From an uncultured Enterobacterales bacterium (GTDB taxonomy: Bacteria; Myxococcota_A; UBA796; CAJQPC01): a stretch of DNA of 64,000 nucleotides. Location of the stretch: positions 55,481-119,480 of the forward strand of contig CAZRYF010000001.1 in assembly GCA_964604165.1 (NCBI GenBank), in the 5' to 3' direction. The notes beneath the pieces were generated by a model that saw only the letters and a program-made list of their open reading frames with translations, did not search any database and was not told where the DNA came from. The position numbers were made by a program, and so were the translations under genes. Shown here in pieces: positions 18,554-56,972 of the stretch; the first letter of the stretch is position 1; every line of letters starts with the position of its first letter.

Positions 18554-18560
18554 GTGCACC

Positions 18561-23893: not shown

Positions 23894-23911
23894 GTGCTCC
23901 CCCTGGGCAGG

Positions 23912-25298: not shown

Positions 25299-25823
25299 CT
25301 AGAAGTCGTCCAGGTACTCATCCCAGACCAGCACTGGAGTGACGGACTCTCCGTTGACTTCCACGGTGAGCCGGTACTCAACCGTTTCAGCAGCGCAAGG
25401 CTCAGAGGCCACGTCCACCACCATGTGGAGGGTCCCTGCAGCGTTCGAGGTCCAGTCGACCTCAGGGCACTGGGCTTCTTCAGGCGGGGGAGTGAAGGAG
25501 CACTCCATGTTGTCTGTCATCCAGAGCTCGTAGTCCGCAAAGGGCAGGGACTGCTCCCAGGTGATGAGCAGGACGGGATCGAACGATGTGGCATCGGAGA
25601 CCGTGTCTACCTGGGCCAGCAGCTCATCCCCTTCTTCGAGCTCCACACTCCAGACATCGATGTACCAGTCCGTGCAGTCCAGGGTGCCGAGGGTGCCAGC
25701 AAGTTCTTGGGTCTCGCCGGTGTCCTCTGGAGTGTTGTCGGACGGGTCCTTTAGACACCCGGCCAGCAGGAGTGGAACCAGCAACACGGGTCCAAGGGGG
25801 GGGCTTTGGGTCTTCACAGTCAT
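25299..25823 (-). CDS. Small acidic lipoprotein, unknown function
   Basis: Lipobox LLAGC. ATGA overlap with the upstream FG-GAP gene. Confidence 0.6.
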   Translation of the reverse strand: MTVKTQSPPLGPVLLVPLLLAGCLKDPSDNTPEDTGETQELAGTLGTLDCTDWYIDVWSVELEEGDELLAQVDTVSDATSFDPVLLITWEQSLPFADYELWMTDNMECSFTPPPEEAQCPEVDWTSNAAGTLHMVVDVASEPCAAETVEYRLTVEVNGESVTPVLVWDEYLDDF

Positions 25824-30583: not shown

Positions 30584-30689
30584 GGGGCTCCGTGGAGACG
30601 GGAGGGATAACCCGCCCCTCGGGATGGAGGTTCCCTGGACCGGGAAACCAATGCCGGCGGCGGGCGTTATGAGCGTGGCAGGAGGTTCC

Positions 30690-40086: not shown

Positions 40087-40836
40087 ATGGCACGAGCACA
40101 CGTCGAGGGTCTAAGGCGGTACGACGCCATGACGATTCAGGTGCTCGCAGGTGACCTGCTGCGGGTGCCACTTAGTGGGGTGGATCGAAGAAGCCTCTGT
40201 GATCTGGTGGCCCTGTCGGAGCGAACGGACTTGCCTGTTCAGCTGACCCGGGACCTCCAAAGGTACCGGGAACAGATGCTCCGGGAGTTCAATGACCTGC
40301 CCGATGGGGACAAGCTGGGACTCTTCCTGACTGAATTGGCTGAGGTGGACGCTGACCGGGTTCCAGCCAGCCTCCGAACGGGGGTTTTGGCCCGCAGTGA
40401 GGAGCACCTGCTACCTCGCACCATGGAGTTGTTCGAGGGGCTGGTCAGGCACTTTGACTCTCTGGAGCCCATGGATGCTGAGTCCACCGACAAGCCGGCA
40501 GTGCGGGTAGAGCAGGTGCAGGCGAAAAAGAAGCCCGTGGCCCGCACCGAGGCAAAGCGCAGCGCCCCGCGACGCCGTGATGAACCCCGTAAGCCAGCGA
40601 AGCCAAAGATCACCCCTGAGAGAGCCGAGTGGATTCGCATTGATGTCCTGGCGCGGCTGGCGGACTACCCGAACCAGGGCCTGAAGCAGGCCATGCTGGT
40701 GGCGGGTGCCCGACACCGATCGCCATGGAACGACCTCAAGGAGGCCGAGGTCGTGATTGTGCTCAAGAGCCTGGAGTCCGGAAACCGGGTCCGGAAGAAT
40801 GGCGGACGGTGGATTCGCGTCGCGAAGATTCGCTAA
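40087..40836 (+). CDS. Hypothetical protein with a central Lys/Arg/Pro-rich region
   Basis: ATG at 40087 preceded by GGGAGGGA. No recognised motif. Its stop overlaps the convergent stop of the PgsB-like gene. Confidence 0.5.
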   Translation: MARAHVEGLRRYDAMTIQVLAGDLLRVPLSGVDRRSLCDLVALSERTDLPVQLTRDLQRYREQMLREFNDLPDGDKLGLFLTELAEVDADRVPASLRTGVLARSEEHLLPRTMELFEGLVRHFDSLEPMDAESTDKPAVRVEQVQAKKKPVARTEAKRSAPRRRDEPRKPAKPKITPERAEWIRIDVLARLADYPNQGLKQAMLVAGARHRSPWNDLKEAEVVIVLKSLESGNRVRKNGGRWIRVAKIR

Positions 40837-43800
40837 AGGAGCGGGTCGTCTCTGAGGGGACCCTCCAGTGGCTCCACTGGCTCCAGCCCTCCCAGAACCT
40901 GGGCGGCCCGGCCCACGGAGATCCTGTGATCCGCGAGGTCCCTCCAGACTTGTTCCGCCTGCCGGCGTTGATGAATTGCCCACAGGGGCGCCAGCTGACC
41001 GGAGAGCCAGGAGATGGCTCGCGCAAAGCCGCTCATGGGAACCCGCCCCAGGGCCAGGGCGGCCTGCCGCTCCCCGATAGCTGCGTCCAGTTGGGCTACA
41101 GCGGTTCGACGCGGCTCGTGTAGGCCTTCCTCCAGATCCATGGACTGGACCAGGCTTCGGGCCTCCAGGAGGGCAGGCAGGCAGGCGGGCGGAGGATGAC
41201 ACAAGGCCTGGACCGCATCGGGAGCAGTCTGGGGATCGGCAAGCGACTCCAGAGTGGCCTGCAAGCTGGCTGCGTGCACCCAATCCCGGGCGAGTCCCAG
41301 ACCCGGTCCGCCGATGTTCTGGATGCCCATGGCGCGAACGTTGGATCCCGCCGGGCAAACCCTCGCCACGAGCCCCGTGATGCGATCTCCAAGAGGAGCG
41401 GCATCCTCCAGAAGGTGAATGTGGGAGAGGAAGATCTCCCGGCCGAGAATTCGCGCGGCCTCGTCCCGTTCCTTCACGTCGTCTGTTGCGCTGCTGAACC
41501 GTACCAACGCAGCAAACGCCATGGCCTCCGCTGCAATGTTGAGCCAGTCATTTGCCAGGTCGGTGGTCCCGTTCCTCCTATCCATCTCGTCGTGAAATGC
41601 GGTTCCCTGGGCGGTCCCTGCCAGGGCTTCCAGGCGAGGCAGCAACGGCTCCAGCAAGGCACGGGCATCAAGAAGCCCCAAAGGCTCGGTGGGGGGCTGC
41701 CCTACAGCCTGGTCCAGGGCCCGGGTGACGGACAGAGTCAACGGCCTGTCCAGTCCAAGCCGTGTGGCGGTGCTCCGAACCAAGGCTCCAGGTGCCACCA
41801 GGCACAGGCGGCTTCGAAGTTGGTTGAGGCGGCGCTGAACGCCTCGAGGCTCAGAACCCAAGGAGAAATCTGCCAGGGTTGCCCCCAGCTGGGCTTGAAT
41901 TTCCGCCAGCAAACCCCGCACGTTTGACCCCATGAGGATGTGCCGGTGGGCGGTGGCACGGTGCACCAGCAGCTCGGCGAACACCCGGGATCGCGCCACC
42001 CGATCCCGGCGATTGTTCACGACGGTGACCAGGAATTCATCGGGCTTGGACTGGGAGCCAAATTCGCTGAACCCCGCCCTCTTCCAGCTCGAGAGAAATC
42101 CCATTCGGTGGTTTGCGGACATGGCGTTTGTAAAGGAGACCCGACGTCCGAGGTGCCGGAATGGTCCCGCCGTGGCCAGGGATCCCAGGTCGGGCACCAC
42201 GTGGTCCGCCAGGAGAATCAAAGCCTCCTCGTCGTCCAGGCCAAGCTCACGCGCCATGGCCCGCACCAGGGCAAGGTTCTGGGGGTGCTCCCCGTAAGGA
42301 AAACGCTCCAAGAGATCCTTGGGCACGGCCTCGGTGGTCTCCACAGCTCGAAGGGGGGCCTCCTTCTTGTGGGCCGCCTCCCGGAGGAGGGGAAGCATTT
42401 CTTGTTCTGTGGTGAGGATCGGTGCGCCGGGAGGAATGAAACGACCGATCACCCGGGCCACATCCTCAGCACCGGGTCCCTGGACGTCCTCGTGATCCGG
42501 GTGGGCGTTGGTCAGGGTGGAGAGATCATCCCGGGTCCATTCTCGCTGGAGCTGGTCGACGTAGTCGCCGCGAAGCGCCATGCACTCCCATAGGAGAACC
42601 CGAGGTTGCAGTGCGGCCGCCCGTTTCAAAAAGGTGGGGTGCTCCCAGATGCTGGCCTTGCCCATGGGGCGCTCCCATCTCAAGACCTCCTGAATTCCGC
42701 CTCCTGGTGAGTACAACGCGGAGGCTTCCGTCCCCGTGGTACGGCAGATCACGGAGTAGCCAAGGCCCTGAAACAACGCGGCTTTCAAGCGCTCCGTGCT
42801 GGTCTTCCCGCGGGTCCCCCATCCCCCGATGACCAGGGGCAAGACCGCCCGGTCTCGGCGAATGACATGCTGGGCCCAGACAAGTCGTGAGAAATACAGA
42901 AAGGCCACCGCACCAGCGGCCACGGCGAGATCGCCGGGCGTGTTCCGGTGTGCACCCAACATCAATGCCAGCGGCGAGAGGAGGCCTCCAAAGTACTGCT
43001 CAATATGGGGAGTGGGCATGCCTGCGTCCCCGTGGGTCTCAAAATCCATGGTGAAGCCGAGTTCCGTCAATCCGGCGGCAAACCGTCCCCGCCCTTCGGG
43101 ATCCGTTGCTGACAAGGCGTTCATGCGGGCATCGGCAAGGGACTTCATGTGCCAGTTGATCGACCACTGGGCCTTGATTCGCGCGGAAGTGTTCCGTGGT
43201 GCGGAGAGGGTGGTGACACCCTGGGAGGTCACCAGCACAAGGGTGCCCCAATCAGCGGCCTCGATGCAGTCCTCGGGCATGGGGAGCCAAGGGGCCCAGC
43301 TCTCCAACCGTTCATCCCGGACTCTCTGGCCCGGGTGGGTTGGAGCGGCTCCACCTAGTCTTTCCGGCGGGACGCGAATCGGACCATGGGCTGCTCGACC
43401 CGTGAGATGATCGCCCAGGTGTCTCTTGTCCGGTGCGGGATTGCGGAATTCATGCAAGAGGCGCCAGAAACGGATCACCTGCTTCTCTCCACGGGTCACC
43501 CGGACCTTTCCCTTGGAGGCGGGGGCCAGGGTGTACCCGTGGCTGTGATCGGCGGAAAACACCAGTGCGCGGGCGAGGTCCATGGGGCTTCCGTCGGGCG
43601 GGAGCGCCACAATTCGACTCCGTCCCACCGGCAGGTTCGCCAGGACGTCCGAGAGCGCATCCATTTCCGGACTCGGAACGTGGCGGGTCCTGTGCAGAGG
43701 GTCCTCAAGTCGTGCCCGTGGATGTCCGTGCTCCCGGAGCAGCCTCCGTGCCCTGGCCCGTACGCTGGGTGCCGGATCAGTGCGGGAGAAGGAGCGCAGC

Positions 43801-44666
43801 AGGTCGGTGGCGGCGGGTGTTTGATCGGCCGCCATTCCGTCTAGAAGGGCGCATCTCACGGTCTCGGATTCATCGGCTTGTGCAGCTGGCACCACCCAGG
43901 CTCTCCATGAGGAGGGGCCGGCCAGTCCCGCCCGCACGGCCTGGGCTCGCAGCAAGAACTGGCTCTCACCGCCCGCGTCGCCTGTGAACACTCGCTGGAA
44001 CACCTCCTGCGCTTCGCTCTCCGCCAAGCTTTGAAGGACTCCCAGGCACCGCCGCGCCGTCAGAATGTCGTCATTTTGAATGTTCTCCACGAGTCGCGTG
44101 GTGCGAAGAGAGTCGGCGGTGACTTCTTCCTGTCCGCGAACCGCGTGGGAGACAAGCGTGGCAGCGGCTGCACGCCGGGTGGGCAGACGCGGGTCACCCA
44201 AAAGCAGGCTCAGGAACTGTACGCCTCGGGTCTCCAGGGGTGTTTCGGAGAGAAGTGCGGCCAGGATCTCCAGGTGCACCCCATGTCGATCGATTCCCAG
44301 GTGCAGTCTTTCCAGTACGGCCGACGGATCCAGCCATCTCTTCATGGCCCTCAGATCTCCCCACAACGCTCGGCCTCGACGGGTGCGCCGCAGGTGGTGT
44401 TCCAGGGTGCGCTGGCGGGAGCGCTCGTTGTCGGCCATGAGAAAGGCGTCGGACAGCTGGTCCCGCTGGTTGATGTCCAGATCCCTTGCACGCAAGATGT
44501 CCATTCCCAAGCGTGCGACCGTTTCGCTCTTGCTGTTGTCCAGCAGCTGTCCCAGGTAGTCCACCGCCGGGCCACGAAGGCGTACCAACAGGGCAGGCAG
44601 TTGTTCTGCAAGGTCCAGCCCGTTGGGGGTGGTGGGTCCTCCCCCGGTTGGAATGGCGTGGTTCAT
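40833..44666 (-). CDS. Giant PgsB/CapB-like Mur-ligase-family amide ligase: about 580-aa N-terminal helical-repeat extension, one TM segment, and a C-terminal extension
   Basis: Start MNHAIP at 44666 (ATGA overlap). aa 605-925 line up block by block with B. subtilis PgsB as I remember it. The blocks are the P-loop GTRGKTS (42798-42818), TTGTEA, ECMAL..DY, NAHPDHEDVQGP, FTNAMSAN and VVNNRRDRV. Confidence 0.75.
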   Translation of the reverse strand: MNHAIPTGGGPTTPNGLDLAEQLPALLVRLRGPAVDYLGQLLDNSKSETVARLGMDILRARDLDINQRDQLSDAFLMADNERSRQRTLEHHLRRTRRGRALWGDLRAMKRWLDPSAVLERLHLGIDRHGVHLEILAALLSETPLETRGVQFLSLLLGDPRLPTRRAAAATLVSHAVRGQEEVTADSLRTTRLVENIQNDDILTARRCLGVLQSLAESEAQEVFQRVFTGDAGGESQFLLRAQAVRAGLAGPSSWRAWVVPAAQADESETVRCALLDGMAADQTPAATDLLRSFSRTDPAPSVRARARRLLREHGHPRARLEDPLHRTRHVPSPEMDALSDVLANLPVGRSRIVALPPDGSPMDLARALVFSADHSHGYTLAPASKGKVRVTRGEKQVIRFWRLLHEFRNPAPDKRHLGDHLTGRAAHGPIRVPPERLGGAAPTHPGQRVRDERLESWAPWLPMPEDCIEAADWGTLVLVTSQGVTTLSAPRNTSARIKAQWSINWHMKSLADARMNALSATDPEGRGRFAAGLTELGFTMDFETHGDAGMPTPHIEQYFGGLLSPLALMLGAHRNTPGDLAVAAGAVAFLYFSRLVWAQHVIRRDRAVLPLVIGGWGTRGKTSTERLKAALFQGLGYSVICRTTGTEASALYSPGGGIQEVLRWERPMGKASIWEHPTFLKRAAALQPRVLLWECMALRGDYVDQLQREWTRDDLSTLTNAHPDHEDVQGPGAEDVARVIGRFIPPGAPILTTEQEMLPLLREAAHKKEAPLRAVETTEAVPKDLLERFPYGEHPQNLALVRAMARELGLDDEEALILLADHVVPDLGSLATAGPFRHLGRRVSFTNAMSANHRMGFLSSWKRAGFSEFGSQSKPDEFLVTVVNNRRDRVARSRVFAELLVHRATAHRHILMGSNVRGLLAEIQAQLGATLADFSLGSEPRGVQRRLNQLRSRLCLVAPGALVRSTATRLGLDRPLTLSVTRALDQAVGQPPTEPLGLLDARALLEPLLPRLEALAGTAQGTAFHDEMDRRNGTTDLANDWLNIAAEAMAFAALVRFSSATDDVKERDEAARILGREIFLSHIHLLEDAAPLGDRITGLVARVCPAGSNVRAMGIQNIGGPGLGLARDWVHAASLQATLESLADPQTAPDAVQALCHPPPACLPALLEARSLVQSMDLEEGLHEPRRTAVAQLDAAIGERQAALALGRVPMSGFARAISWLSGQLAPLWAIHQRRQAEQVWRDLADHRISVGRAAQVLGGLEPVEPLEGPLRDDPLL

Positions 44667-47600
44667 CGCTTGCCCTCGGGAATGTCCAGTGCGGTGCGAA
44701 ACGGCAGGTCCAGCGGCGAGTGATCCCGCAAGCCTCGGTGGGGACCTCGCTGTACCTCCGCCTGGGCATAGATATCCACCGCTCCAATGGTGGGCAGGTA
44801 TTGACCCCCGGCCCCCAGGGAGATCCTGGTGCGGCTGCCAAGCCAAACGGACTGCATGATCTGCCCCGTGGCACGAGGGCGCCAATAGGCCTCAACCCGG
44901 GCAGGCTCGACAAATCGATATCCCATGCCGGGGGAAAAGGTCAGCCGGGTGCCTGGAGCGAGCAGGCAGTCCAGGCGCAGAGAGCCCTCTATCCAATTGG
45001 GGCGAACAAGAGCAGTGGACCGGCCCTCCAGGGTGAAACGAAGCCGCCCATCTCGAAGGGGGCGCCAGTCTGCGTGTGCCCCCAGTCCAAGTCCGCCTGG
45101 ATGGAGGCGCTCGTACGCGTTCCAGGCCGCGGGGTCCACGGCCACAAGGGAGGACTCGGACCACCGCCCCAAGTGGGCCGTGGCGAATGGCTTGGCGCTC
45201 CAGTTTGGGGCAAGGGGAACCTCTCGGCGTAGTTCGGCGGCCGCGCGGACGTGGCCTGCCCCTCCCGAAAAGCCACCATCCAACGCGGTTCGTAGGAGCC
45301 ATGGATCCCAGGAACGGGTCCAGCGGGCCTCTGCCAGGGTGCCTGGAACAGACTGGAGACTGGTGCGGTTCTGAACCTCAAAAAACAACCAATCCTGGGA
45401 AGAACCGAGCCGCTTTCGGAGGGTCACACGGGCGGCTTGAAAGCCGTGGTTGGTCAGGTCGTCCCGGACGCCGGTGGCGTCATTGCCCAGCAAATAGGCG
45501 CCGGAGATCGTGCCTGTGCGCCCCATGGGTAGGGGCATTGGACTGGCTGGAAAGGCAGACTCAGCCAGCCAACGCTGTGCGTGTTGCGCTGCGAGCGGAT
45601 CGGGTGAGGGTTTGGGAGGGGTGGGCCTCAACCCGCTGACCTCCCCCCGTGGCCAGGTGGACTCCTCTGCCTGCAAGCGAGACAACGACACCCGCGTGTT
45701 CAGTGGCCCCCGCAAACGGACCTGCTGCAGTCCATGGGCGGGTAGGGGCACCATACCCACACTCTCAATGGTCCATGTTCGGTCTCCCACCATGGCCTGG
45801 ACCGGTTGATTGCCGTGTACTCGAATGCGCAGGAGGCTCTCACCGGCCACCCGGAGCGAGAGGCCCTTGGCACCCAGCCTGTGGACCGCAGCCCGTCGGG
45901 TCGGGGGGAGCGCAGTCTCGTTGTGCACCAGCTGAACCCCAAGGGCGCATCCGGGGGCGGCCCTCATCATGCGAAGGACGTGTTCGCCTTCCGAAAGCGC
46001 CCATTTGTGGTGCACGGAGGGCCCGAAGAGAACCTCCAACTCGGTCAGGGTGCCATCCAATTCCAACCCGAGTGAGCAGGCTGGAGGAGAGATCGCGTGG
46101 GTTTCATCCGAAGACACCGCCGAAAGCTCAAGGGTCCCACCGCCGTGTATTTCAACCCGCACGATGCCTCCTGCCCGGAGGACCACGTGCTCTTCTGGAA
46201 CCCAGGGTGCAGCAAGCATGGCGTCCCGGGCCAGCCTGAGCACGCTGTCGCCGGGTTTGGGTCCCCGCCGGGGCACGTCGACCGAGTCGGAACCACCGTC
46301 TTCATCGACTCGGGTGATGTGTTGCCAAGGGGCGCTGGCGGCGATCTGGAGGCGGGCGACCCTGCCCAGGTCACCTGCCAAGGATGCGTGAAGCCAGGCG
46401 GTTCCCGGGCGCAGATCCTTAAGGTACATCTCGGCGAGCGCGAGGTGGACGGGGGCGTCAATGCGATCCGGAAGGTGCGCCGCGAGGCGCTCCAGCCCGC
46501 TGGTCGTGGCAGGAGCGGCGATCCCAGCCCGGCCGGCAGCAGCCGCCAGGGAAATGGGGCCGGGCATGGGTGCTGAGAGAACCAAAGGCTGGGCATTCCA
46601 ATACAGGTGACTGGCTTGCTGGATCTGCTCAAATGTGGCACCCGGCATTCCCCCTGCAGCGGAGGCTTCTGCCCGGGCAGAGGCGTGGAGGCCCAGGGTC
46701 GCAAGCTGCTGGGCCCGAGAGAGTCGCAGGGAGACCCGCTCCCCGGGGTTCCTGGCTTTGCGGAGATTGGCGCTGTCCAACCGCAGCTGCTCCAGGGGGT
46801 CTATGCCCGGTACGACGGAGGCCGCTGAGCCCCGCTCCAGTGCCCTGCGAAAGGCCGCACCTACCAACACCTCCTGCTCGGCCACGACCTCCAGGTGGTC
46901 GGCCCATGGGCCCACGGGGACTCGCACTCTGGAGAGACCTTCATGAGACTCTGCCTCCCAGGTGTGTCCGTCGGAGGTGGCGATCACCAACCCGGTCGCG
47001 CTGCCTTCAATCAAGAGCTCCACCTCTCCAGGAGCGCCGACATCGGGCAAGTACCAAGCAGCCGGAGTGCGCATGGCAGGTCGCTCCCGGAATGGAGTCC
47101 CCCCATCTACCAGGTCGCCCTCCAGCGCCTCCAGGATTCCTTCTTGCACTTCCACCCGGTGGTTTCCAGCTGAGACCGCCTCCGCAAACAGACCTTGGCC
47201 CCGAAAGGGAATTCCATCCAGGGTGAATTGCACAGGCGCCTCGGAGCGAAGACGAAGGATGGGGTACTCACCGTTGCCAGGTTCGGGTGCGGTAATGCCG
47301 ACACTCTGGCCTGCGTGAATCCACGCCCGTGACGTGCCGCCCCGAAGACCGGGCGCCTTCAACGACTCTGTCGCACGGTCGGCCACCGGTACCGGCCACA
47401 GTGCGGACCAGCGAGCGTGAACATCCGTCCCCGTGGGAAGCTCCGCCAAGGTTCGGATGGCAAGGCCGCGAGAACGGTAGAACCCGGCTGGAATCTGGTC
47501 TGCGACTTCAGCCAACAGGGATGGATCGATGGGAAGCTCACCCCCCAATTCCACTAGCAGAGCAGGGTCCACATCCCGCCAGCGCTGCCAGCGACGTGCG

Positions 47601-48679
47601 AGGGCCAGTGCTGTGAGGGGGTCGGCGGTTGCCTCGGAAAGGTGGGCGAGCGCCTGGTCGGGATCCGGGTGATGTTCCACAAGACGTGCCCGCGCCAGAG
47701 GGGCCGCAGAGGTGTCCAAGAGCGCCTCGGCAGCCGCCACGCAGGCGACGTTGTCCAGGCCCAAGTGCGCGGACTCCATTGCCCGAAGCAGGTCCCGTGG
47801 GTGGCTCCGGTCGAGACGGGCATGGCGTAGGACGGAGTGCAGACTTGGACGAAGACGAAGAAGGGAAGGCTGCAAGCTCGCGGAGCCCCCCTGCACCTCC
47901 ACCGAGAGCGTGTGGATGCCGTGCGGAAGCAGGACATGGGTGCGTCGGAGGTGCGTCCAGCCAGGTACCTCGGGGTTTTCGGAGGCCCCGAGAGCTGCAT
48001 GGTGGATGGGGGTGTCATCCTTTGCCACCACAATCGCGTAGCGTACATATCCAGCCTCGGTTGTCGGGGTGCGGGTGGCCAACTCCAACAGTCCTGGCCC
48101 TCGAACCTCCAGGGAGTGGGATTTGCCATCCGCCAATTCAGTCGGAGGAAGGAGGAGGGTGCCGTGATCGGCGGCGGACCGAGCACGGACCTTTTCAAGC
48201 TCCAGCAGGGCAGCGGCGTATTGGAAGTGGTGGGCCCGGGTTCCCATAGAAGAGAATGCCTCTCGCCGTGCGCTCCACTCGACCTCCAGGGCTGCGATGG
48301 TGGCGGGGGCTTGGGGAAACGCTCCTCCTGTACGAAACCACCTGGAGAGGCGCCGTTCGTAACGGCCCCAGGCCTCTGCATCTCCGTCGTGGGTCTCCAC
48401 CCAGCCATCGATCTGGCTGAAGTCGGCCAAGCGCAGCTCCACGGCGCGTTCCCGGGTCGGTGCTGGCAAGAGCACCGTGCCTCCCGGGCCTTCCGCAAGG
48501 TCCAGACGAAGCCCCTCGCTCCAAGCGGACAGCGCCTTGGGGAGGGGGTCAAAATGGAGGAGCACGCGCTGCCCAGCCTTCTGCGAGATGACGAGCTGTG
48601 AGCGGGGTTCGTTGTCGATTCGGTCCTGGGGAATCCAGGCGGTGGCAAGAGCCGTCTGCACCAGAAGGAGCCACATCAT
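44663..48679 (-). CDS. Giant secreted protein (1338 aa), unknown function
   Basis: Signal peptide MMWLLLVQTALATAW. ATGA overlaps at both ends. No catalytic motif recognised. Recurrent G-x-H-x-[LV]-x-V beta-sandwich-like motifs. Confidence 0.7.
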   Translation of the reverse strand: MMWLLLVQTALATAWIPQDRIDNEPRSQLVISQKAGQRVLLHFDPLPKALSAWSEGLRLDLAEGPGGTVLLPAPTRERAVELRLADFSQIDGWVETHDGDAEAWGRYERRLSRWFRTGGAFPQAPATIAALEVEWSARREAFSSMGTRAHHFQYAAALLELEKVRARSAADHGTLLLPPTELADGKSHSLEVRGPGLLELATRTPTTEAGYVRYAIVVAKDDTPIHHAALGASENPEVPGWTHLRRTHVLLPHGIHTLSVEVQGGSASLQPSLLRLRPSLHSVLRHARLDRSHPRDLLRAMESAHLGLDNVACVAAAEALLDTSAAPLARARLVEHHPDPDQALAHLSEATADPLTALALARRWQRWRDVDPALLVELGGELPIDPSLLAEVADQIPAGFYRSRGLAIRTLAELPTGTDVHARWSALWPVPVADRATESLKAPGLRGGTSRAWIHAGQSVGITAPEPGNGEYPILRLRSEAPVQFTLDGIPFRGQGLFAEAVSAGNHRVEVQEGILEALEGDLVDGGTPFRERPAMRTPAAWYLPDVGAPGEVELLIEGSATGLVIATSDGHTWEAESHEGLSRVRVPVGPWADHLEVVAEQEVLVGAAFRRALERGSAASVVPGIDPLEQLRLDSANLRKARNPGERVSLRLSRAQQLATLGLHASARAEASAAGGMPGATFEQIQQASHLYWNAQPLVLSAPMPGPISLAAAAGRAGIAAPATTSGLERLAAHLPDRIDAPVHLALAEMYLKDLRPGTAWLHASLAGDLGRVARLQIAASAPWQHITRVDEDGGSDSVDVPRRGPKPGDSVLRLARDAMLAAPWVPEEHVVLRAGGIVRVEIHGGGTLELSAVSSDETHAISPPACSLGLELDGTLTELEVLFGPSVHHKWALSEGEHVLRMMRAAPGCALGVQLVHNETALPPTRRAAVHRLGAKGLSLRVAGESLLRIRVHGNQPVQAMVGDRTWTIESVGMVPLPAHGLQQVRLRGPLNTRVSLSRLQAEESTWPRGEVSGLRPTPPKPSPDPLAAQHAQRWLAESAFPASPMPLPMGRTGTISGAYLLGNDATGVRDDLTNHGFQAARVTLRKRLGSSQDWLFFEVQNRTSLQSVPGTLAEARWTRSWDPWLLRTALDGGFSGGAGHVRAAAELRREVPLAPNWSAKPFATAHLGRWSESSLVAVDPAAWNAYERLHPGGLGLGAHADWRPLRDGRLRFTLEGRSTALVRPNWIEGSLRLDCLLAPGTRLTFSPGMGYRFVEPARVEAYWRPRATGQIMQSVWLGSRTRISLGAGGQYLPTIGAVDIYAQAEVQRGPHRGLRDHSPLDLPFRTALDIPEGKR

Positions 48680-49533
48680 GGGGTCTCTCCAGCCTCGAGA
48701 AGTGCCAAAGAAAATGCTTCCCGGCGTGACTCCTCGGTGAGAAGCCCCTCACGTGCGGCACGGGAGAGCTCCAGGTGAAGAAAGGCAGCGCTGCTGGACA
48801 ATCCACGACCTTGGACGTTCTTGGTTCCAGCCAACTCGGGGAGGGAAGCCCCATTCACAACGGGTCCGAGGTCTCCCATGACCTCCTGCAGCGCGGCCAG
48901 CAGCCCTTGCTCAAACCGTGAAGGCTGGAGGGCGGATCCCGCCGAGACCACGACGGATTCCCCGTCACGCGGTGCGAAGCCGTGGATTTGCACCACGATG
49001 GGATCGGAAAGCCCCCGCGCCGCCCCAAGGGTGGCAGCCTGAAACAAGGAGGCGGGTCGGTGGGCCACATCGGGATGTACCTCTTGCTTCTCTTCCCCCC
49101 CGGGCCCCCCAAAGCGATGGCCCTGGTTGAAGAAAGCTGCTCGTGCTGCACCGGATTCGAAGAGGTCGGCCACCAGGCGCCCGGTGTCCAGGTCATACCA
49201 CCCGTGGGGCGCCTCCAGGACGAGAGAGGGGGCCGGGCCAAGGCGAACGACAAAAACGCCGAGAGGAACGTCCTTTGCGCCCCAGAGCAGCACCCGTTCC
49301 TCCTCGATGCGAAGGTGAAGTCCCAGGTGGGCTGCCCGTGACACCAGATCCGCCGGCACGTTTCCAGTGGGTGCGACCGCAAACAGGTCCATCATCAGGC
49401 TCTGCATGTCCAGGCGCTCGCCGGGAGAAAGGTCACCAAAGGGGGCGTCTCTTCTGGCTTTGTCCACGGTGGTCCAGAGATCATCCGCCCGTGCGGGATG
49501 CAGGAGAAAAAACAAGGCAAGCCAGCTGCTCAT
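48676..49533 (-). CDS. Secreted putative zinc amidohydrolase (PghP / N-formylglutamate amidohydrolase-like fold)
   Basis: Start MSSWLALFFLLHPARA (ATGA overlap). Candidate metal ligands in LEAPHGWYDLDTG (H110, D114/D116) and VVQIHGF (H184), resembling the PghP-family HGG..E ... IHGY pattern. Confidence 0.5.
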   Translation of the reverse strand: MSSWLALFFLLHPARADDLWTTVDKARRDAPFGDLSPGERLDMQSLMMDLFAVAPTGNVPADLVSRAAHLGLHLRIEEERVLLWGAKDVPLGVFVVRLGPAPSLVLEAPHGWYDLDTGRLVADLFESGAARAAFFNQGHRFGGPGGEEKQEVHPDVAHRPASLFQAATLGAARGLSDPIVVQIHGFAPRDGESVVVSAGSALQPSRFEQGLLAALQEVMGDLGPVVNGASLPELAGTKNVQGRGLSSSAAFLHLELSRAAREGLLTEESRREAFSLALLEAGETP

Positions 49534-51929
49534 CGGCCGTCCATCTCCCACCTGGGGCTTGTGTCGGTCAAAGGTTCCGGAGCGCTACCCGCATCAAACC
49601 GCAGGTAGACTGGGCCATCACTGCGGGTCACCCGCACGCGAACCCGGTGGGTTCCGGACAACAGGTCGTCTCCAAGGGGGATGTACAGGGCACGCCTGGG
49701 GACAAGGGCACCGCTGGCGCGATCCTCCATCCAGGCGCCGCCTCCTCGAGGAGCGGGCCGCCCGCTGACGACGGCGGGGGTAATTCTCTCAACCCGTCCA
49801 TACCGGCGCCGGGGGTTTCCCCCGTCGACCCTGGCCTCCAGGGTTGGGCCGGCTCTTCCCTCGGGTGTGTAGCTGCGCACATAGAGGGTGGTGCCGCCAG
49901 CGGGCACCTGCACCAGGACCTCCAGATCCTTCCGATCCCCCCGAACCACTCGGCGCCGCGCCCACTTTCGGCCATCACCGGGCACGTCTGCAAGATAGCG
50001 CCCCACAGGAGCGGTCAGGCGGCAGGGCTGTTCTCCCGGGGGCAGCCCATCAAAGTGTACGGAGGAGGCTGCAGCGGGAAGCCGGCTGGTGACAGACGTG
50101 TCTCCGCAGTTCAGCGTGATGGGACGCCCCGAGGATAGAGGGTCCACCCGGTAGTCCACCCGGACCCTGCCGCTTTCCGGAACCAGGAGCTGGTTGATGG
50201 GCGCCAGGCGGGTGCGATCCCAGGCCTGCCAGAGGCGACGGGTTCGGCGCACCGGTTCGGAGATCAAGTGCGACTCGCTTCTCCCCTCTGGAACGACGGT
50301 TCGGGTGCGCCAGGCGCCAGGGGTTGGAACCTTCTCTGGAAGGACAGGCCGGACTGTTGCATCAAATCGTACGAGCCGGTGATTCTCAGCCAAGGAGGCC
50401 GCGTGGTTCGGGGAGACGGACACGTAGGGCGCTTGGACCCAGGGTGCATTGTGGGGGCGCCATTGACCGGGAAGATCATAAGCAGCAGCCCGTTGGCCCG
50501 AATCCAGGGGAACCAAGAAGCGCATATCCACTGGAGAGTCCGTGGCCAGGCGCAAGGTGATTGCTTCTGGGGGATGAAGAATCTGGATGCTCGTGGCCTC
50601 ACTCATGGGGGAGGTCTCGGGCTCGATTCTGTGCTCCAGGGGGGTGGGAAGAAAGGGCGCATCAAATGCACCTTCCACAAGGACCTGGTCCTCGCGCCCC
50701 AACAGCTGGTACCGAATGCGCGTCAAAAGGGGGTCTTGTGTGGCAGCGTGCGGTGTCCAATCCTTTGGTGGAAGAGGCCTTGCCTTGACCTTGAGGCGGC
50801 CGTGGCTTGTCCCCGTTGCCAGGGGAATCTCCAGGGGGTCAGACTCTGGAGAGAGATGCCAGGCGGTGAGACGACGAGTCTCCGGAGCGATGGTTTGTTC
50901 CATCCCACTGCCTGGGGGCGCGCCCCAAAGGCACTGGGGGGAGGGGTGTGCGGTGAAGGCCAGGGACACAGGGTCGCTCTCCAAGGGCACGTTCCACCTC
51001 AGGGTCACCATTTCCCCGGGGTTGGCCGCCAATGGATGGTCCGTCGTTTCCACCCCTGAATCGTCGGTGACGGGCTCGCCGTGCACCAAGATGCGCTCCA
51101 CGTCCAACGTGACCGGTAGCTGGTCGGGAAGACTCCGCGCGGTCATCTCGATCCGGCAGGGCCCGATCAAGGTGAGCTGCGTCGCTTGGCCGGGCTCCAA
51201 GCGCACACCCTTGGGATGGGTGGTCGGTGCACGGTGAATCGGGCCGAGCCGATGAAGGGCACGGGTCGTTCCGGACAGGCTCTCGGCAGCCACGGGGCGC
51301 GTGTCTGCGCTGGCAAGACGGATGCGCTCCACTTCCTCCAGGGCGGTCCACGGAAAGGGGCCAGCCCTCTCCGCTCTGCTGTTCATCAGGTTCTCGGACT
51401 GCAGATGGAGGGCCACCGTGGCCGAATCGGGTCGTTGTCGGCTCTCGACTCGAACCTGCAGGCGCATATCGGACGTCCCCAGCAAGGGAGAAATTGTCAG
51501 CAAGCCGCCTTCGGGGGCCAACTTGGCAAGGGGCACGTCCACCCGGCGAATGTCTGTGAGAACCATGCCTGCCCGGGCCCCGTGGATTCGCTCTGCTCCG
51601 TTTTCCAGCAGGCTGCGCCGTGCTCGAAACCACAGGTCATGGGTGAATTCCTCTCCCTGGTGGGGCTGCAGTCGAAGTTGAACGCCAAAGGTCCAGGTCT
51701 GGGTCTCATCTCGGGCAGGAGGCTCGGGCACTTCCAACGCCATGGAGAGCACCAGGCTGGACTCCCCCTGCGCCAGCCGAACGCTCACGGCAGTCTCTGG
51801 ATCAAGGGCGTAAAAGAGCGACCGATCTCCCGTGGTACTCGAGGGTTCATCCACCCGGGTCGTCAGGGCTTCTGTGATGCCTGCAGCAAGGAGCGCCCAA
51901 CCGAGAATTGGCAATGCGAACCGTGTCAT
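49530..51929 (-). CDS. Large secreted protein (799 aa), unknown function
   Basis: Signal peptide MTRFALPILGWALLAAG. ATGA overlaps at both ends. Looks beta-rich. No recognised domain. Confidence 0.7.
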   Translation of the reverse strand: MTRFALPILGWALLAAGITEALTTRVDEPSSTTGDRSLFYALDPETAVSVRLAQGESSLVLSMALEVPEPPARDETQTWTFGVQLRLQPHQGEEFTHDLWFRARRSLLENGAERIHGARAGMVLTDIRRVDVPLAKLAPEGGLLTISPLLGTSDMRLQVRVESRQRPDSATVALHLQSENLMNSRAERAGPFPWTALEEVERIRLASADTRPVAAESLSGTTRALHRLGPIHRAPTTHPKGVRLEPGQATQLTLIGPCRIEMTARSLPDQLPVTLDVERILVHGEPVTDDSGVETTDHPLAANPGEMVTLRWNVPLESDPVSLAFTAHPSPQCLWGAPPGSGMEQTIAPETRRLTAWHLSPESDPLEIPLATGTSHGRLKVKARPLPPKDWTPHAATQDPLLTRIRYQLLGREDQVLVEGAFDAPFLPTPLEHRIEPETSPMSEATSIQILHPPEAITLRLATDSPVDMRFLVPLDSGQRAAAYDLPGQWRPHNAPWVQAPYVSVSPNHAASLAENHRLVRFDATVRPVLPEKVPTPGAWRTRTVVPEGRSESHLISEPVRRTRRLWQAWDRTRLAPINQLLVPESGRVRVDYRVDPLSSGRPITLNCGDTSVTSRLPAAASSVHFDGLPPGEQPCRLTAPVGRYLADVPGDGRKWARRRVVRGDRKDLEVLVQVPAGGTTLYVRSYTPEGRAGPTLEARVDGGNPRRRYGRVERITPAVVSGRPAPRGGGAWMEDRASGALVPRRALYIPLGDDLLSGTHRVRVRVTRSDGPVYLRFDAGSAPEPLTDTSPRWEMDGR

Positions 51930-54748
51930 CGCTGCCTCCGAAAGCCGATGGCGGCTCCCGTTGTGCGCAAGGCCTGGATATCACCGGCCCGGTCCGCTAC
52001 CTCTCCGTTGTAACGGGAAAGAGGCACCACCATGAGTGTGCCCCGCCGAGATGCCTTCAAGTACGGCACGTCGTCCCCGTCCACGATGACTTCCAGAGAG
52101 ACGCCAGCCTGGATTGCCTGTCGCTGCAGTCGCTCCAGCTCCCCAGGATGGGTGGTGCGTCCGTAGCGGGCGAGGTTCTCCAAAACCCGTCCGTACAGGG
52201 CCCGCACATCCTCGGGCGAGATCGGTTCATGGGCCAGGAGCGTCTCCAGCGACTCATCCCGAACAGGTAGACCCACGGCTTGAAGGGCGGACCTGAGGGA
52301 GCTGGAGTCGGCGAGGGCTGGGAAGCGAAGGCGGTAAAGGGGAGAGAGCCACACCGAGAGAAACCGGCCCTGGGCCAACTCCACCATGTCGCGCCGGGCA
52401 TTGGACGGGTCGTGGAACCGAAATTGAGTGGCTTCGCCTGTGTACGCCAGCGTGGTGCCGCCGGCCCTTTCTACCAGGCGCTGGGTGGCCTCCAACTCCG
52501 CCGGCACCTTCTCGGTGGGGAGGAGCGGTCGGCCCAGGGAAACGATGGCGTCAGCGCCGGGATTCTCGTCCTGGCGGAAGCCTGCCACGGAGACCACGCT
52601 GACGTCTTCGGTCTCCAGGGCAAGGCGCCGAAGGACCGTCCCCTCCCCGGATTGAAAGCCGGCGCGATCCAGCGCCCGGGCGTCTCGGTCTGCGTTGGCG
52701 TCATGCACCACCAGGGCGCTTCCCTGCATTGCAGCCCACCAGCTTCGGGCCACCAACGCTGTCCCGGCCTGCCTTCCCCCTGCGGGGGCCTCGAAGATCC
52801 AGGGGCTGTGGGTGCGGCGCAGCCAAAGAGTCCACCGGGGGGATTGGCGGCCAGGTCCCGGGCCCAGGGAGAGCGTGTCCTCATCTGCGGCAACGGTGAG
52901 CTTCAAGTCTGCTGCATGTGCCGCCGCAAGATTGGCCCACCTGGGATCCCCGGTTCGGGCCAGGAGAAGTGGCTGAACTACGCCCCGATCGAGGGTGGCG
53001 AGCTCCTGGGCTGTTGGGAGTAGGGGGGCGGTGGCCAGGTGGTTGCCCAACAAGGGGACGCGCCCAGAATTCACGGTTCCTGCAAAGCGCAACAATGCAG
53101 CGCTCAACCGATCGGACTCGCTCATGGACAGGGTGATCGTCCGTGGATCCGTAGCATTCCACTGGGTGGTCAGGGAGCCCAAGACCCGCTGGAGAACGTC
53201 CAGTTGGAGCCCCTCTGGCAAGGATCCAGCGGCTTGCAGGGAGGTCTCCACGCTTGTTTGGAGGAGTAGGAGGTGGTCCGCCTCTTCCCTCGCAAGGCCA
53301 AGCAGGAGGGGCGCAGGAGAGAGAGCCAAGGCCTGGGCGTCGAGGAGCTCCGCCAGGACAATGGCCGCCTCGGTCATGGCGGGGACGCTGTGGGCTTGAG
53401 GGGCCACAATCCAAAGGCCGGTGGAGGACTGTGGACGAAACCAGAGGCGCCCGAGTCCGGTGTCCTCTTCGCCCTGAAGAACCCAACCGTCCGTGTGGTT
53501 GTCCACGCGGAGGCCCGGGACCTGGCTGGGCCAGCCCTGCTGGGCTGCATCCCACGAGGATCGCAAGGTTGCTTCATCGGGCTCCCGGCCGGCCAGATGA
53601 GGCAAGACGCCCCTGGCCATCGCCTGCCAGGCCGGAATCTGAGGGGGAGGCGCCAGCGCGGCGGGGGTGTCCGCTGCCAGCGGTCGGACCTCCTCCAAGG
53701 CCATTCCCACACCGGTGCCCAGGACAAATCCCCCAAGGGACGCAAGTGTGGTGGGCAGAAGCACCCGCATCAGCTGGCCCTGTCGCCAGCAACGCACGAC
53801 CACAAGCGACGGCAGGAGGTACCCAAAACCAAAAAGGTCAGTGGCCCGCAGCCCGGGGGCGCTCTCGCCTAGCCAGACTGCGAGACCCATTTTCAAGAGG
53901 TAGGAAACGGAAAAGGCCAACACCAGCGGCCGAAGTCCTGACAGGTTCACCCGGGAAAAAGGGGGAATGCGAGTCAGGACCCTCAGGATCCAGACGGTGA
54001 CCAGCACTTCGGCCAGGGTGGCCAGCAGCTGCTCTGGGTGAATCCAGGCAATGGCCAAAAGTCCGGGAACGAGGACCCCACCAAACTCCCAGCCGAACCG
54101 CAGGTTGAGCCGCATGGCGAGCAGAGTGCTCACCAGGAGAAGGATGTAGGCCCGGGGCACAGAGACAAAATCGTGTGCCAGGTTTTCATAGGTAAAGGCG
54201 AAGTGGGACAGGTTCAGGTTTGTGTAGGGGAGCAGCACACCATCCAGCAGCCAGTAGACGGCCAGCACGGGAAGTCCTACCAGAGGCACCCCCCGCAGTA
54301 GCCCCGGCATCCAAAGGGCGTTGGCGGCAAGTGGAACCAGAACCAGGCCCATGGAATGGAAGGGGCCCTGGACATCCCATCCCATGGAAACCGCAAAGTC
54401 CTCACCCCAGCCGGCCTCCACGGCGAGGCGCACGAAGACGCTGCACAGGAGAATCAGGAAGAACCGGTCTCTGCCAAAGGGCCGACTGATGGGGAACACC
54501 TTGGGCAGGCCGCGACCCAGGGCCATCGCGAGGGCCCAGGTGAGTACAGCTTCCACGGCGATGACCGCCGCCGCTGCGGGCTGGATGACCAGCACACCCG
54601 CCAGGTATCCAGGCACAACCAGTCCGGACTGGGGCCAGCCGTAGAGCTCTCCCAGCAAGAAAAGCAACAAGACACCCAGCAGAACCGCTGTGAAGAGGCT
54701 GCTGTCTACGTAGGTGTTTGGAACAAGGGGAAGGAGAGCGGAGGGCAC
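51926..54748 (-). CDS. Tandem PgsC/CapC-like membrane modules fused to a roughly 600-aa C-terminal region holding two degenerate copies of the 48676-49533 amidohydrolase-like fold
   Basis: GLVVPGYL (54602-54625), GRDRFFLILLCSVFVRL and MGLVLVPLAANAL match PgsC blocks. A second module repeats them (GGVLVPGLLAIAW, LRPLVLAFSVSYLLKM, FGYLLPSLVVVRCWRQG). GTG start at 54748 has no clear SD. Confidence 0.7.
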   Translation of the reverse strand: MPSALLPLVPNTYVDSSLFTAVLLGVLLLFLLGELYGWPQSGLVVPGYLAGVLVIQPAAAAVIAVEAVLTWALAMALGRGLPKVFPISRPFGRDRFFLILLCSVFVRLAVEAGWGEDFAVSMGWDVQGPFHSMGLVLVPLAANALWMPGLLRGVPLVGLPVLAVYWLLDGVLLPYTNLNLSHFAFTYENLAHDFVSVPRAYILLLVSTLLAMRLNLRFGWEFGGVLVPGLLAIAWIHPEQLLATLAEVLVTVWILRVLTRIPPFSRVNLSGLRPLVLAFSVSYLLKMGLAVWLGESAPGLRATDLFGFGYLLPSLVVVRCWRQGQLMRVLLPTTLASLGGFVLGTGVGMALEEVRPLAADTPAALAPPPQIPAWQAMARGVLPHLAGREPDEATLRSSWDAAQQGWPSQVPGLRVDNHTDGWVLQGEEDTGLGRLWFRPQSSTGLWIVAPQAHSVPAMTEAAIVLAELLDAQALALSPAPLLLGLAREEADHLLLLQTSVETSLQAAGSLPEGLQLDVLQRVLGSLTTQWNATDPRTITLSMSESDRLSAALLRFAGTVNSGRVPLLGNHLATAPLLPTAQELATLDRGVVQPLLLARTGDPRWANLAAAHAADLKLTVAADEDTLSLGPGPGRQSPRWTLWLRRTHSPWIFEAPAGGRQAGTALVARSWWAAMQGSALVVHDANADRDARALDRAGFQSGEGTVLRRLALETEDVSVVSVAGFRQDENPGADAIVSLGRPLLPTEKVPAELEATQRLVERAGGTTLAYTGEATQFRFHDPSNARRDMVELAQGRFLSVWLSPLYRLRFPALADSSSLRSALQAVGLPVRDESLETLLAHEPISPEDVRALYGRVLENLARYGRTTHPGELERLQRQAIQAGVSLEVIVDGDDVPYLKASRRGTLMVVPLSRYNGEVADRAGDIQALRTTGAAIGFRRQR

Positions 54749-54823
54749 GAGGAGAAGGACTGCTCAAAGGGGGGGCTGGTTCTGCGGACCCCCTCAGGAA
54801 GGGGATGCCTCGTATCGATTCAG

Positions 54824-56023
54824 CTAACCTGCTTTTCCCAGCAGATCCGCTGCCGTCCAGAGTACGGCTTGAGGGTCGGTGTCTCCGCAGTCCCCCGGCT
54901 GCAGCAACAGCGCCCGCCGGACCCCGTTCGGGCGCCGGAAGGGTGCGGCCAGAAAGGCGTGGTCCACGCCGGAAGGGACGGAGTGGTCTGCAAGTCGGGA
55001 CATCACGTCTACGGGCAACGGCCCTGTGTCCCCGGCCTGGGCGAGGGGAATCCAGGTGCCGTTGCGTTCCTCCGCAATCCAGCAAGCCAGTCCCCCTGCT
55101 CGGGCCAGGACCACCTCGCAGGCGCCCTGCCAGGGATCGGGCTCCAGGCGTTCACGGAGGTTTGGCCGAACGATCGCGGCGATAACAGCTCCCCCCCACA
55201 AGGCCCACAGCCCGGAATCCACAGGGATCGGACGGCCAAACCCCTCCAGGAAAAGTGCCAGGGCTCCGAGAATGCCAGTGGCGCCGCAGCACCACCTTGT
55301 GATGCTGCGGCCTGGGCTCTCCAAGAGACGGGCCCAGAAAATCCCCAAAACACCAAAGATTGCCAGAAGGGTGGTTGGGTGCCACCCTGGGTGAAGGCGT
55401 CCGGAGAGGCAGCGGGCAATGATCTCCGGCAGGGGAACAAGGCCAGCGGGGGTTGCAAGGGTCGTGGTGCCCCAGGGCGCCGCGCCACTCACGAGAACCA
55501 TCTTCCCCGCGAGAGCTTCCTGGTCCAGTGCTTGAAGTTGGACTGCATTCAGGGTGGGGACGGGGCCGGTCACGCGGGGAATGAGACCCTCGATAGGAGG
55601 AAAGTCCTCTCCGCGGGCTGCCAGGAGCCGGCCAATGAACGTGGCGCCGTGTTGGGAACGAGTTCGCGCCCGCCGATGAATCCCGTCCTGGTCTGCAGGC
55701 AGGCCCGCCTCCTCCATCCAGTGGACTTGGGAAGAAAACTGAATGGACTCCACGGACCCAGGCAGGTCCGGCCCCACCACCCCGACGGTGCGGGCTCCCT
55801 TCTCCTTTGCCAGCTGAACAGCGGCTTGCCAGGCCCGAAGGGGAGCACGGCTGGCGACGGTCACCCGGAGCACGGAGTCCCCAGGCGAGGTTGCATGGAG
55901 GGCAGCCATCCGATCCCCAAGGGGTTGAAATCCCTGGAAGCCCAACACAGCCATCCCCACGCTCCAAAGAGGGATCAGGAGCGCCAACAAGGCGCTGTGA
56001 GAGAGTCGGGGGATCGGGTTCAT
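54824..56023 (-). CDS. CHASE2-like membrane sensor protein without a recognisable output domain
   Basis: N-terminal TM, about 200-aa extracytoplasmic region with CHASE2-like blocks (GKMVLVSGAAPWGTTTLATPAGLVPLPEIIA), three TM helices, then a roughly 90-aa unassigned tail. Confidence 0.5.
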   Translation of the reverse strand: MNPIPRLSHSALLALLIPLWSVGMAVLGFQGFQPLGDRMAALHATSPGDSVLRVTVASRAPLRAWQAAVQLAKEKGARTVGVVGPDLPGSVESIQFSSQVHWMEEAGLPADQDGIHRRARTRSQHGATFIGRLLAARGEDFPPIEGLIPRVTGPVPTLNAVQLQALDQEALAGKMVLVSGAAPWGTTTLATPAGLVPLPEIIARCLSGRLHPGWHPTTLLAIFGVLGIFWARLLESPGRSITRWCCGATGILGALALFLEGFGRPIPVDSGLWALWGGAVIAAIVRPNLRERLEPDPWQGACEVVLARAGGLACWIAEERNGTWIPLAQAGDTGPLPVDVMSRLADHSVPSGVDHAFLAAPFRRPNGVRRALLLQPGDCGDTDPQAVLWTAADLLGKAG

Positions 56024-56096
56024 GGGGGAGATTCCGGCAAGCAGGGGTTAACAGGCGATGGAGTCGCCGGGGAATCGCCCGGTTCCAGGAGAAACC

Positions 56097-56972
<876 letters not shown>

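Follow-up and report, generated by a model that had tools for sequence, protein, structure and literature searches.

To our knowledge, the synthesis of poly-gamma-glutamate (PGA) is understood almost only from single-membrane Bacillus, with its PgsBCA(E)/CapBCADE systems. In the literature searched, no described answer exists to how PGA would pass across an outer membrane. Co-occurring homologues of CapB and CapC have been recorded in several diderm phyla, including Planctomycetes, Fusobacteria, and Synergistetes (CapsuleFinder, PMC5542703). Here we describe a block of genes, g1 to g6, at positions 40833-56023 of a 64,000-nucleotide stretch of contig CAZRYF010000001.1 (the window, meaning the whole stretch analysed), in which relatives of PgsB and PgsC are encoded together with a secreted amidohydrolase fold and an outer-membrane barrel. 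The locus is probably a trans-envelope, synthase-dependent machine that makes and exports PGA or a related anionic polyamide in a two-membrane bacterium. PGA is the most likely product, because the ligase and membrane modules are PgsB/PgsC-like and the hydrolase resembles, in its fold, enzymes cleaving glutamate amides; a related polyamide is possible. An initial annotation, made from the sequence alone, had judged the architecture unexplained by any known system, and no paper describing it was found, nor was any literature linking PgsB/PgsC with Myxococcota or describing an outer-membrane PGA exporter.

The block consists of six co-directional open reading frames (ORFs), whose coordinates are as first read:

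54824-56023, minus strand: g1, 399 aa, predicted N-terminal transmembrane segment (TM), extracytoplasmic domain of ~190 aa, more TMs, and a cytoplasmic tail of ~100 aa (hydropathy)
51926-54748, minus strand: g2, 940 aa, double PgsC/CapC membrane module, then a periplasmic region of ~590 aa (PF14102, E=5.9e-37)
49530-51929, minus strand: g3, 799 aa, signal anchor or signal peptide, then a large duplicated region (hydropathy, self-comparison with hhalign)
48676-49533, minus strand: g4, 285 aa, predicted secreted periplasmic metallo-amidohydrolase with the fold of N-formylglutamate amidohydrolase (FGase), succinylglutamate desuccinylase, and PghP-YndL (model, Foldseek)
44663-48679, minus strand: g5, 1338 aa, signal peptide followed by beta-sandwich and helical-repeat modules in the periplasm and an outer-membrane barrel at the C-terminus (AlphaFold2 model, Foldseek)
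40833-44666, minus strand: g6, 1277 aa, PgsB-like ATP-dependent amide ligase with large N-terminal and C-terminal extensions (TIGR04012, E=6.6e-53)

The genes g2 to g6 overlap by 4 nt at each junction (TCAT on the plus strand, ATGA on the coding strand), at 51926-51929, 49530-49533, 48676-48679, and 44663-44666, while a gap of 75 nt separates g1 from g2. Overlaps of 4 nt are also found at most junctions of two relatives that are 41-49% identical (L014 and L005), and because they recur there, the translational coupling of g2-g6 is conserved and not due to chance. The same genes are called in independent assemblies of the same organism. The initial annotation had proposed a six-gene coupled operon; its six ORFs, their coordinates, and the four ATGA overlaps all stand, but the conserved unit comprises the five genes g2-g6. 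At its 3' end, g6 directly adjoins a convergent gene; on the other side of the block, a lipoprotein gene runs divergently from a position upstream of g1, and an Lgt gene was seen nearby. Promoter and terminator scans of both operon ends were uninformative, and gene calling based on G+C content at third codon positions could not separate real genes from shadow ORFs across the window.

The ligase g6 carries its catalytic core between two long extensions:

43632-44234, minus strand: g6 aa 145-345, HEAT-like alpha-solenoid repeats (alphaRep, E=5.5e-11; HEAT_2, E=5e-4)
42876-43001, minus strand: g6 aa 556-597, hydrophobic segment or segments before the P-loop (hydropathy; alignment with the PgsB N-terminus)
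41910-42908, minus strand: g6 aa 587-919, PgsB/CapB catalytic core (TIGR04012, hhalign)

From its sequence, g6 is predicted to be an ATP-dependent amide ligase of the PgsB type that catalyzes gamma-glutamyl ligation. The PgsB model TIGR04012 matches aa 587-919 with 179.8 bits (E=6.6e-53), far better than the next family, FolC (E=0.0075), and hhalign aligns B. cereus PgsB 14-328 with residues 593-918 of the g6 family at 99.7% probability (E=4e-27). The motifs on which the PgsB match was initially proposed, GTRGKTS, TTGTEA, ECMA..DY, N..PDHEDV.GP, F.N..SAN, and N.R.DRV, are collinear with those of PgsB; the P-loop and the others lie in register with it at 27-28% identity and are invariant across the g6 family. 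When 72,556 plasmids were searched by tblastn with the g6 core, CapB was found at 27.9% identity over 94% of the query, and all matches that carried an annotation were PgsB/CapB, while a few in Streptomyces carried none. Assignment of g6 as FolC, a Mur ligase, or cyanophycin synthetase is ruled out by the family scores and by a search of the PDB with the g6 family profile, which returned no Mur ligase among its matches. The same profile search retrieved designed HEAT-like alphaRep proteins for aa 145-345, and Pfam HEAT_2 is also detected in g6. As single sequences, g6 and g2 matched nothing in the PDB, where no structure of PgsB or PgsC appears to be deposited.

The hydropathy of g6 peaks at aa 589, 29 residues ahead of the P-loop at 618 (two peaks are seen in P0007). 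This segment aligns with the N-terminal hydrophobic segment of PgsB and is taken as the membrane anchor equivalent to the N-terminal TM of that enzyme, possibly in the form of a hairpin. Between the HEAT-like repeats and the ligase core, at ~aa 399-431 (~43374-43472), lies a conserved basic stretch (RFWRLLHEFRNPxPDKR..., with R399, W401, R402, E406, R408, K414, R415, H420, G428, and R431 conserved) that could be a ligand-binding or regulatory site. A word-indexed search with g6 returned seven clusters with identities down to 29-33%, a result that understates the family, since g2 yields ~700 clusters.

The second recognizable synthase component, g2, is a 940-aa fusion rather than a stand-alone PgsC of ~150 aa, and public annotations label it 'PgsC/CapC' or 'hypothetical'. 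Three regions can be distinguished:

53690-54703, minus strand: g2 aa 16-353, twelve hydrophobic segments forming two six-segment CapC modules (hydropathy, charge counts, 76 homologues)
53255-53659, minus strand: g2 aa 364-498, first g4-like domain, partial and degenerate (hhalign, 95.7%, E=9.5e-9)
52286-53047, minus strand: g2 aa 568-821, second g4-like domain, complete, a predicted pseudo-enzyme (hhalign, 99.2%, E=1.3e-19)

The two tandem PgsC/CapC-like modules that had been noticed by eye both pass the Pfam CapC hidden Markov model (HMM), PF14102, which matches g2 in two stretches with 127.2 bits against a cut-off of 27 (E=5.9e-37). Identity to B. cereus CapC is 33% for one module and 24% for the other. 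Counts of K+R and D+E over 76 homologues reveal positive loops at 76-95, 146-154, 263-274, and 319-330 and acidic loops at 1-15, 111-130, and 174-195. A topology with both the N-terminus and the C-terminus outside is predicted, and the tail of ~590 aa is placed in the periplasm because of the positive-inside rule over these homologues. The tail and the secreted g4 are assigned to the same compartment.

This tail is related to g4. Profile-profile comparison with hhalign pairs residues 25-276 of the g4 family with g2 568-821 at 99.2% probability (E=1.3e-19; 89.5% with small alignments) and residues 33-185 with g2 364-498 at 95.7% (E=9.5e-9). The homology is visible only by such comparison, and BLASTP of g4 against g2 found nothing. 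In the second domain the g4 motifs APHGW, QIHGF, and FLHLELS are replaced by APAGG, SVAGF, and FLSVWLS; the invariant His/Asp/His/His/Glu set of g4 is absent, and the g2 family consensus lacks these His residues. By sequence, the periplasmic region of g2 is predicted to carry two catalytically dead copies of the g4 fold. In evolutionary terms, the locus would then be a case of an enzyme fold recruited, in inactive form, into a synthase.

In contrast to its copies in g2, g4 itself is, by its predicted structure, an active-looking secreted Zn-amidohydrolase. An AlphaFold2 model built from a 45-sequence alignment has a predicted local distance difference test score (pLDDT) of 92 and a predicted TM-score of 0.90. 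Its best Foldseek match in the PDB is FGase (2q7s, E=9e-6), with succinylglutamate desuccinylase (2bco), YndL in complex with PGA (5onj), the phage PGA hydrolases 21dc and 3a9l (PghP), and Atu2144 (2odf) among the further matches. For 2q7s, 5onj, 21dc, 3a9l, and 2odf the E-values range from 9e-6 to 9e-5 at a probability of 1.00, with target-normalized TM-scores of 0.43-0.59, and in BFVD a Bacillus phage PGA hydrolase ranks third (E=6e-6). M14 carboxypeptidases and Amidase_3 enzymes appear at lower ranks, the Amidase_3-type cell-wall amidases AmiC2, CwlD, LytH, and AmiP with E-values of ~4e-4. Residues H110, D114, H184, H253, and E255 are invariant in the 45 sequences. N-terminal signal peptides are general among g4 homologues, and g4 has an extra N-terminal helical region of ~70 aa. 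Pfam and NCBIfam, including PF05908 and PF05013, gave no match to g4 at E<=0.1; against PDB sequences g4 produced only noise, and the 45-sequence profile yielded nothing relevant. The early description of g4 as PghP/FGase-like is therefore supported at the level of the fold, by the model and Foldseek, but not as membership of those Pfam families. In two other loci, which also keep the g4 within the block, a second g4-like gene lies upstream of g2 (L013 1-1192, Corallococcus exiguus, E=9e-21 with the g4 HMM; L037 2-1153, E=7e-20).

The protein g5 provides the candidate outer-membrane component. Three of its parts are defined in the model:

47447-47842, minus strand: g5 aa 280-411, first alpha-helical repeat module, TPR-like (DSSP of the model, fragment 142-273)
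46340-46798, minus strand: g5 aa 628-780, second alpha-helical repeat module (DSSP of the model, fragment 490-642)
44747-45511, minus strand: g5 aa 1057-1311, 14-strand antiparallel barrel (model, fragment 919-1173; Foldseek)

The AlphaFold2 model covers aa 139-1338 and was computed from a 27-sequence alignment; its pLDDT is 82.8, with the barrel blocks mostly above 90. From the N-terminus, the chain forms a beta-sandwich, a helical module, two beta-sandwiches, the second helical module, more beta-sandwiches, a disordered linker, and 14 strands. Among the best 50 matches listed in a Foldseek search of the PDB, outer-membrane barrels occur nearly throughout: OmpG (2iwv) is matched at E=2e-5 with a target-normalized TM-score of 0.54-0.67, and others are OmpM1, PelBC (9h80), PgaA (4y25), AlgE (3rbh), KdgM, NanC, and Occ porins. 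Homologues of g5 begin with short signal-peptide-like N-termini. An exhaustive HMMER search yielded no more than 39 relatives, which are all alike in size; the family is fast-evolving and unlinked to known families. Pfam and NCBIfam gave no match to g5, and its profile retrieved only designed Ig domains from the PDB sequences. The proposal that a giant secreted partner might serve export across an outer membrane thus gains support, for g5, from the model and Foldseek. The two-membrane host, deduced earlier from flanking LPS and lipoprotein genes, is here supported by this barrel and by the Myxococcota labels of the closest named relatives.

The initial annotation had seen no recognizable domains in either the 799-aa g3 or g5, and this holds for Pfam and NCBIfam searches, which also gave no match to g3, but not for the structural model of g5 with its barrel. 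The g3 protein has a single N-terminal hydrophobic peak that is kept in its homologues. Self-comparison with hhalign aligns residues 29-489 with 346-797 at 94%, and g3 is weakly similar to the beta-sandwich regions of g5 (hhalign 65%, E=6e-5). Judged from its sequence features, the duplicated region is probably periplasmic and beta-rich.

The first gene, g1, is more restricted. Its hydrophobic peaks, at aa 20, 225, and 254, give a topology (one TM, ~190 aa, further TMs) compatible with a CHASE2 sensor, yet the CHASE2-like assignment made at first is weak: PF05226 scores 17.2 bits (E=0.004) against a cut-off of 26.3, and none of five homologues matches it. Only 10 of 58 loci, which all belong to the closer clade, have a g1 homologue ahead of g2, and these homologues are 517-781 aa long. 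Because these homologues are longer, g1 looks like a shortened sensor, and it is best described as a sensor-like, clade-specific membrane protein with a putative accessory or regulatory role. The 781-aa homologues (L018, L019, and L020) end in a histidine-kinase-like C-terminus with weak GAF_2 and HisKA matches, and those of 517-553 aa (L014, L024, L025, L026, L028, and L032) have an extra C-terminal domain. The divergent gene beside g1 (56058-56972, plus strand) has a lipoprotein-like product and contains a 24-copy GCCGAC tandem repeat at 56190-56333, translated as (Asp-Ala)n. In L014, L023, and L025, homologues of 28-31% identity are likewise placed divergently ahead of the block, and the protein may be an additional clade-specific component.

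The g2-g6 system is not rare, being present in hundreds of environmental genomes. The g2 architecture forms ~704 clusters at 90% identity, whose named members are metagenome-assembled genomes (MAGs) of Myxococcota; the nearest of them, at 58%, carries the label Myxococcota bacterium. The architecture also occurs in cultured strains of Corallococcus (among them C. coralloides DSM 2259, COCOR_06300), Pyxidicoccus, Aggregicoccus, and Archangium. The block occurs whole, at 87% identity, in a MAG labelled 'uncultured Enterobacterales bacterium' (L001, CAZSZE010000002.1), a label that is hard to square with 64% G+C and Myxococcota-labelled nearest relatives. Taxonomic labels of MAGs are unreliable, and this one is probably a mislabel or a binning error.

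Gene order is retained in distant relatives, a point on which the initial annotation had said its proposal could fail. The order g2-g3-g4-g5-g6 recurs in relatives with 41% and 33% g6 identity, in another with 49% g2 identity, and in the complete genome of C. exiguus. For a broader scan, HMMs were built from the homologues, 95 loci were collected with the g2 alignment, and presence was counted only in loci with enough sequence downstream of g2. There, the counts were 49 of 54 loci for g3, 39 of 42 for g4, and 27 of 33 for g5, and they underestimate the divergent g3 and g5. Wherever four or five of the genes were present, they were collinear (32/32 loci). In L004, g5 and g6 lie ahead of g2. The conserved unit is taken to be g2-g6, without g1, because g1 is present in only the minority of loci given above.

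The absence of PgsA/CapA, which the initial annotation had noted, is confirmed for the 64-kb window (tblastn with a CapA-like protein from L005, best E 1.1) but does not extend to all relatives: a PGA_cap (PF09587) gene adjoins the block in four related loci (L005/L007, L033, L035, and L057). In L005, where g6 is 41% identical, and in L007, a response regulator comes next after the block, and then a 668-aa protein with CarboxypepD_reg and PGA_cap domains (L005 14522-16942; L007 10352-12772). Since the window lacks PgsA while some related loci keep a CapA-like gene, PgsA is optional for the system. B. subtilis is reported to be able to make PGA without pgsA (PMC6029982).

The analysis shows the domain identities, the folds of g4 and g5, the dead g4-like domains of g2, the conservation of gene order, and the translational coupling; which polymer is made, how the parts touch, which way transport runs, and what each accessory protein does are inferred from these. 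In the resulting model, g6 would be held on the inner membrane by its pre-P-loop segment, with the HEAT-like and C-terminal domains in the cytoplasm, and would polymerize the amino acid together with g2, whose 12-segment fused PgsC pair presumably forms the translocation path. The chain would emerge beside the periplasmic region of g2, where the inactive copies of the g4 fold could bind and guide it, and this region may substitute for PgsA. With its anchor in the inner membrane, g3 would project its duplicated beta-rich domain and might bridge or scaffold the periplasmic path. The g4 enzyme would trim, release, or clear the polymer, as BcsZ, AlgL, PelA, and PgaB do in exopolysaccharide systems. 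Finally, the helical-repeat and beta-sandwich modules of g5 would receive the chain and its 14-strand barrel would pass it through the outer membrane, with g1 possibly regulating the process as a clade-specific membrane sensor.

Several observations weigh against a trans-envelope PGA machine. Both synthase components fall below the equivalog cut-offs of their families, g6 with 179.8 against 222.7 bits for TIGR04012 and g2 with 56.8 against 96.45 bits for TIGR04011, and the ligase core is only ~28% identical to CapB. The topology of g6 hinges on the assumed hairpin. The fold matches of g4 are modest, with TM-scores on the target of 0.37-0.59 and no Pfam match, and the same fold also covers peptidoglycan amidases and carboxypeptidases. 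The g5 barrel lacks the usual aromatic C-terminal residue. In two loci (L056 and L091), which keep g2, g4, g6, and a short g3, g5 was not detected between g4 and g6, the outer-membrane component being either encoded elsewhere or lacking in these lineages, and g4 is displaced in two others (L053 and L058). The polymer itself is a prediction, as are the contacts between the components.

The missed cut-offs and the low identity to CapB mean that the substrate or the linkage could differ. The same architecture might then produce a different amide-linked polymer, such as a poly-amino acid that is mixed or beta/epsilon-linked, or might add glutamyl chains to an envelope acceptor (lipid, glycan, or protein) that is then exported. 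The large extra domains flanking the core, and the position of g4 outside the PGA hydrolase family in Pfam, would suit such a product. However, all PgsB motifs are aligned and conserved, other Mur-ligase families score far lower, and the best fold matches of g4 act on glutamate amides, two PGA hydrolases among them. Taken together, these two variants deserve to be kept in mind but are unlikely.

A still less probable reading, which we consider improbable, treats g3-g5 as an envelope-remodelling or uptake module, composed of a peptidoglycan amidase and a porin, that merely shares the operon while the polymer stays periplasmic or cytoplasmic. It would account for the resemblance of g4 to AmiC2, CwlD, LytH, and AmiP (~4e-4), and OmpG-like 14-strand barrels are usually solute porins. 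The gene order is nevertheless strict across relatives of 30-50% identity and the genes are translationally coupled; the dead g4 copies fused to the PgsC modules of g2 tie the fold to the synthase; and the g5 barrel is joined to ~1000 aa of periplasmic modules, as in exporters of the PelB, PgaA, and BcsC type and unlike solute porins. That the locus is a decayed, non-functional remnant whose long fusions are annotation artefacts, for which nothing more than the unusual protein sizes speaks, can be dismissed, as no reading frame is broken, dozens of independent assemblies and complete genomes of cultured strains show the same sizes and order, and the catalytic motifs and many residues are invariant.

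A trans-envelope synthase for PGA or a related polyamide remains the preferred reading, and it gives the locus value as a candidate parts list that is directly testable in strains available in culture, Corallococcus coralloides DSM 2259 among them. Confirmation of the product would add an unrecognized polymer to the biology of the myxobacterial matrix, capsule, or spore coat. There is also possible applied value in a Gram-negative export route for PGA biotechnology.

Elsewhere in the window, further features were noted on the minus strand. The ORF at 9434-10996 joins a molybdopterin oxidoreductase (sulfite-oxidase-like) domain to a Mo-co dimerisation domain, with a cbb3-type cytochrome c domain at the C-terminus. 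The interval 17081-25177 looks like an uptake cluster of the branched-chain amino-acid ABC type, with a periplasmic binding protein, a BPD_transp_2 permease, and an interleaved AMP-binding (acyl-CoA synthetase-like) enzyme. A 790-aa protein encoded at 28565-30937 combines a retropepsin-like aspartyl protease domain with TPR repeats, and its neighbour at 25820-27730 encodes a 636-aa FG-GAP repeat protein.

Among described systems, the locus resembles the Bacillus PgsBCA(E)/CapBCADE systems in its PgsB-type ligase motifs, pre-P-loop anchor, and PgsC/CapC modules, and in encoding a polymer-directed hydrolase alongside, as Bacillus does with pgdS and capD. There are also differences. The g6 ligase has 1277 aa instead of ~395 and has gained HEAT-like and C-terminal domains, while the PgsC unit in g2 is duplicated, fused, and extended by ~590 periplasmic residues. 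Neither PgsA nor PgsE is encoded in the window, and the locus includes an outer-membrane component and a second large periplasmic protein. The hydrolase is also of another kind, g4 having the PghP/FGase fold, whereas PgdS has an NlpC/P60 fold and CapD a GGT fold. This fold is common to g4 and to PghP, YndL, and FGase, and g4 keeps an invariant His/Asp/His set of its own that would suit a metal site. However, g4 is encoded in a biosynthetic operon and not by a phage, and its metal site would be spaced H-x3-D in place of the H-x4-E of PghP. The CapsuleFinder model, which scores CapA-CapE only, includes no fused giants, dead hydrolase domains, g3, or outer-membrane exporter (PMC5542703).

The overall plan recalls the Bcs, Pga, Pel, and Alg exopolysaccharide systems, which likewise combine an inner-membrane synthase-translocon, a periplasmic polymer-cleaving enzyme, and a barrel fused to helical repeats. 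The g5 barrel matches those of PelB, PgaA, and AlgE, a resemblance at the fold level only, and no sequence homology to these systems was detected. It has 14 strands, whereas the barrels of PgaA, PelB, and BcsC have 16 and that of AlgE has 18. Pfam matches of g1-g6 include neither PilZ nor a GGDEF I-site, no dedicated test for a cyclic di-GMP receptor having been made, and Pfam and NCBIfam detect no glycosyltransferase domain in g1-g6. Where those systems polymerize with a GT2 glycosyltransferase, this one has an ATP-dependent amide ligase, so that the product would be a polyamide. The evidence is evenly balanced on whether the locus encodes the first machine dedicated to secreting a poly-amino acid through the whole envelope, an independently assembled polyamide counterpart of the cellulose, poly-N-acetylglucosamine, Pel, and alginate machines in which PgsBC recruited a barrel with periplasmic repeat modules and duplicated, dead hydrolase copies handle the chain in the periplasm in place of PgsA, and which would supply the Myxococcota, including Corallococcus, with a surface or matrix polymer that has not been sought.

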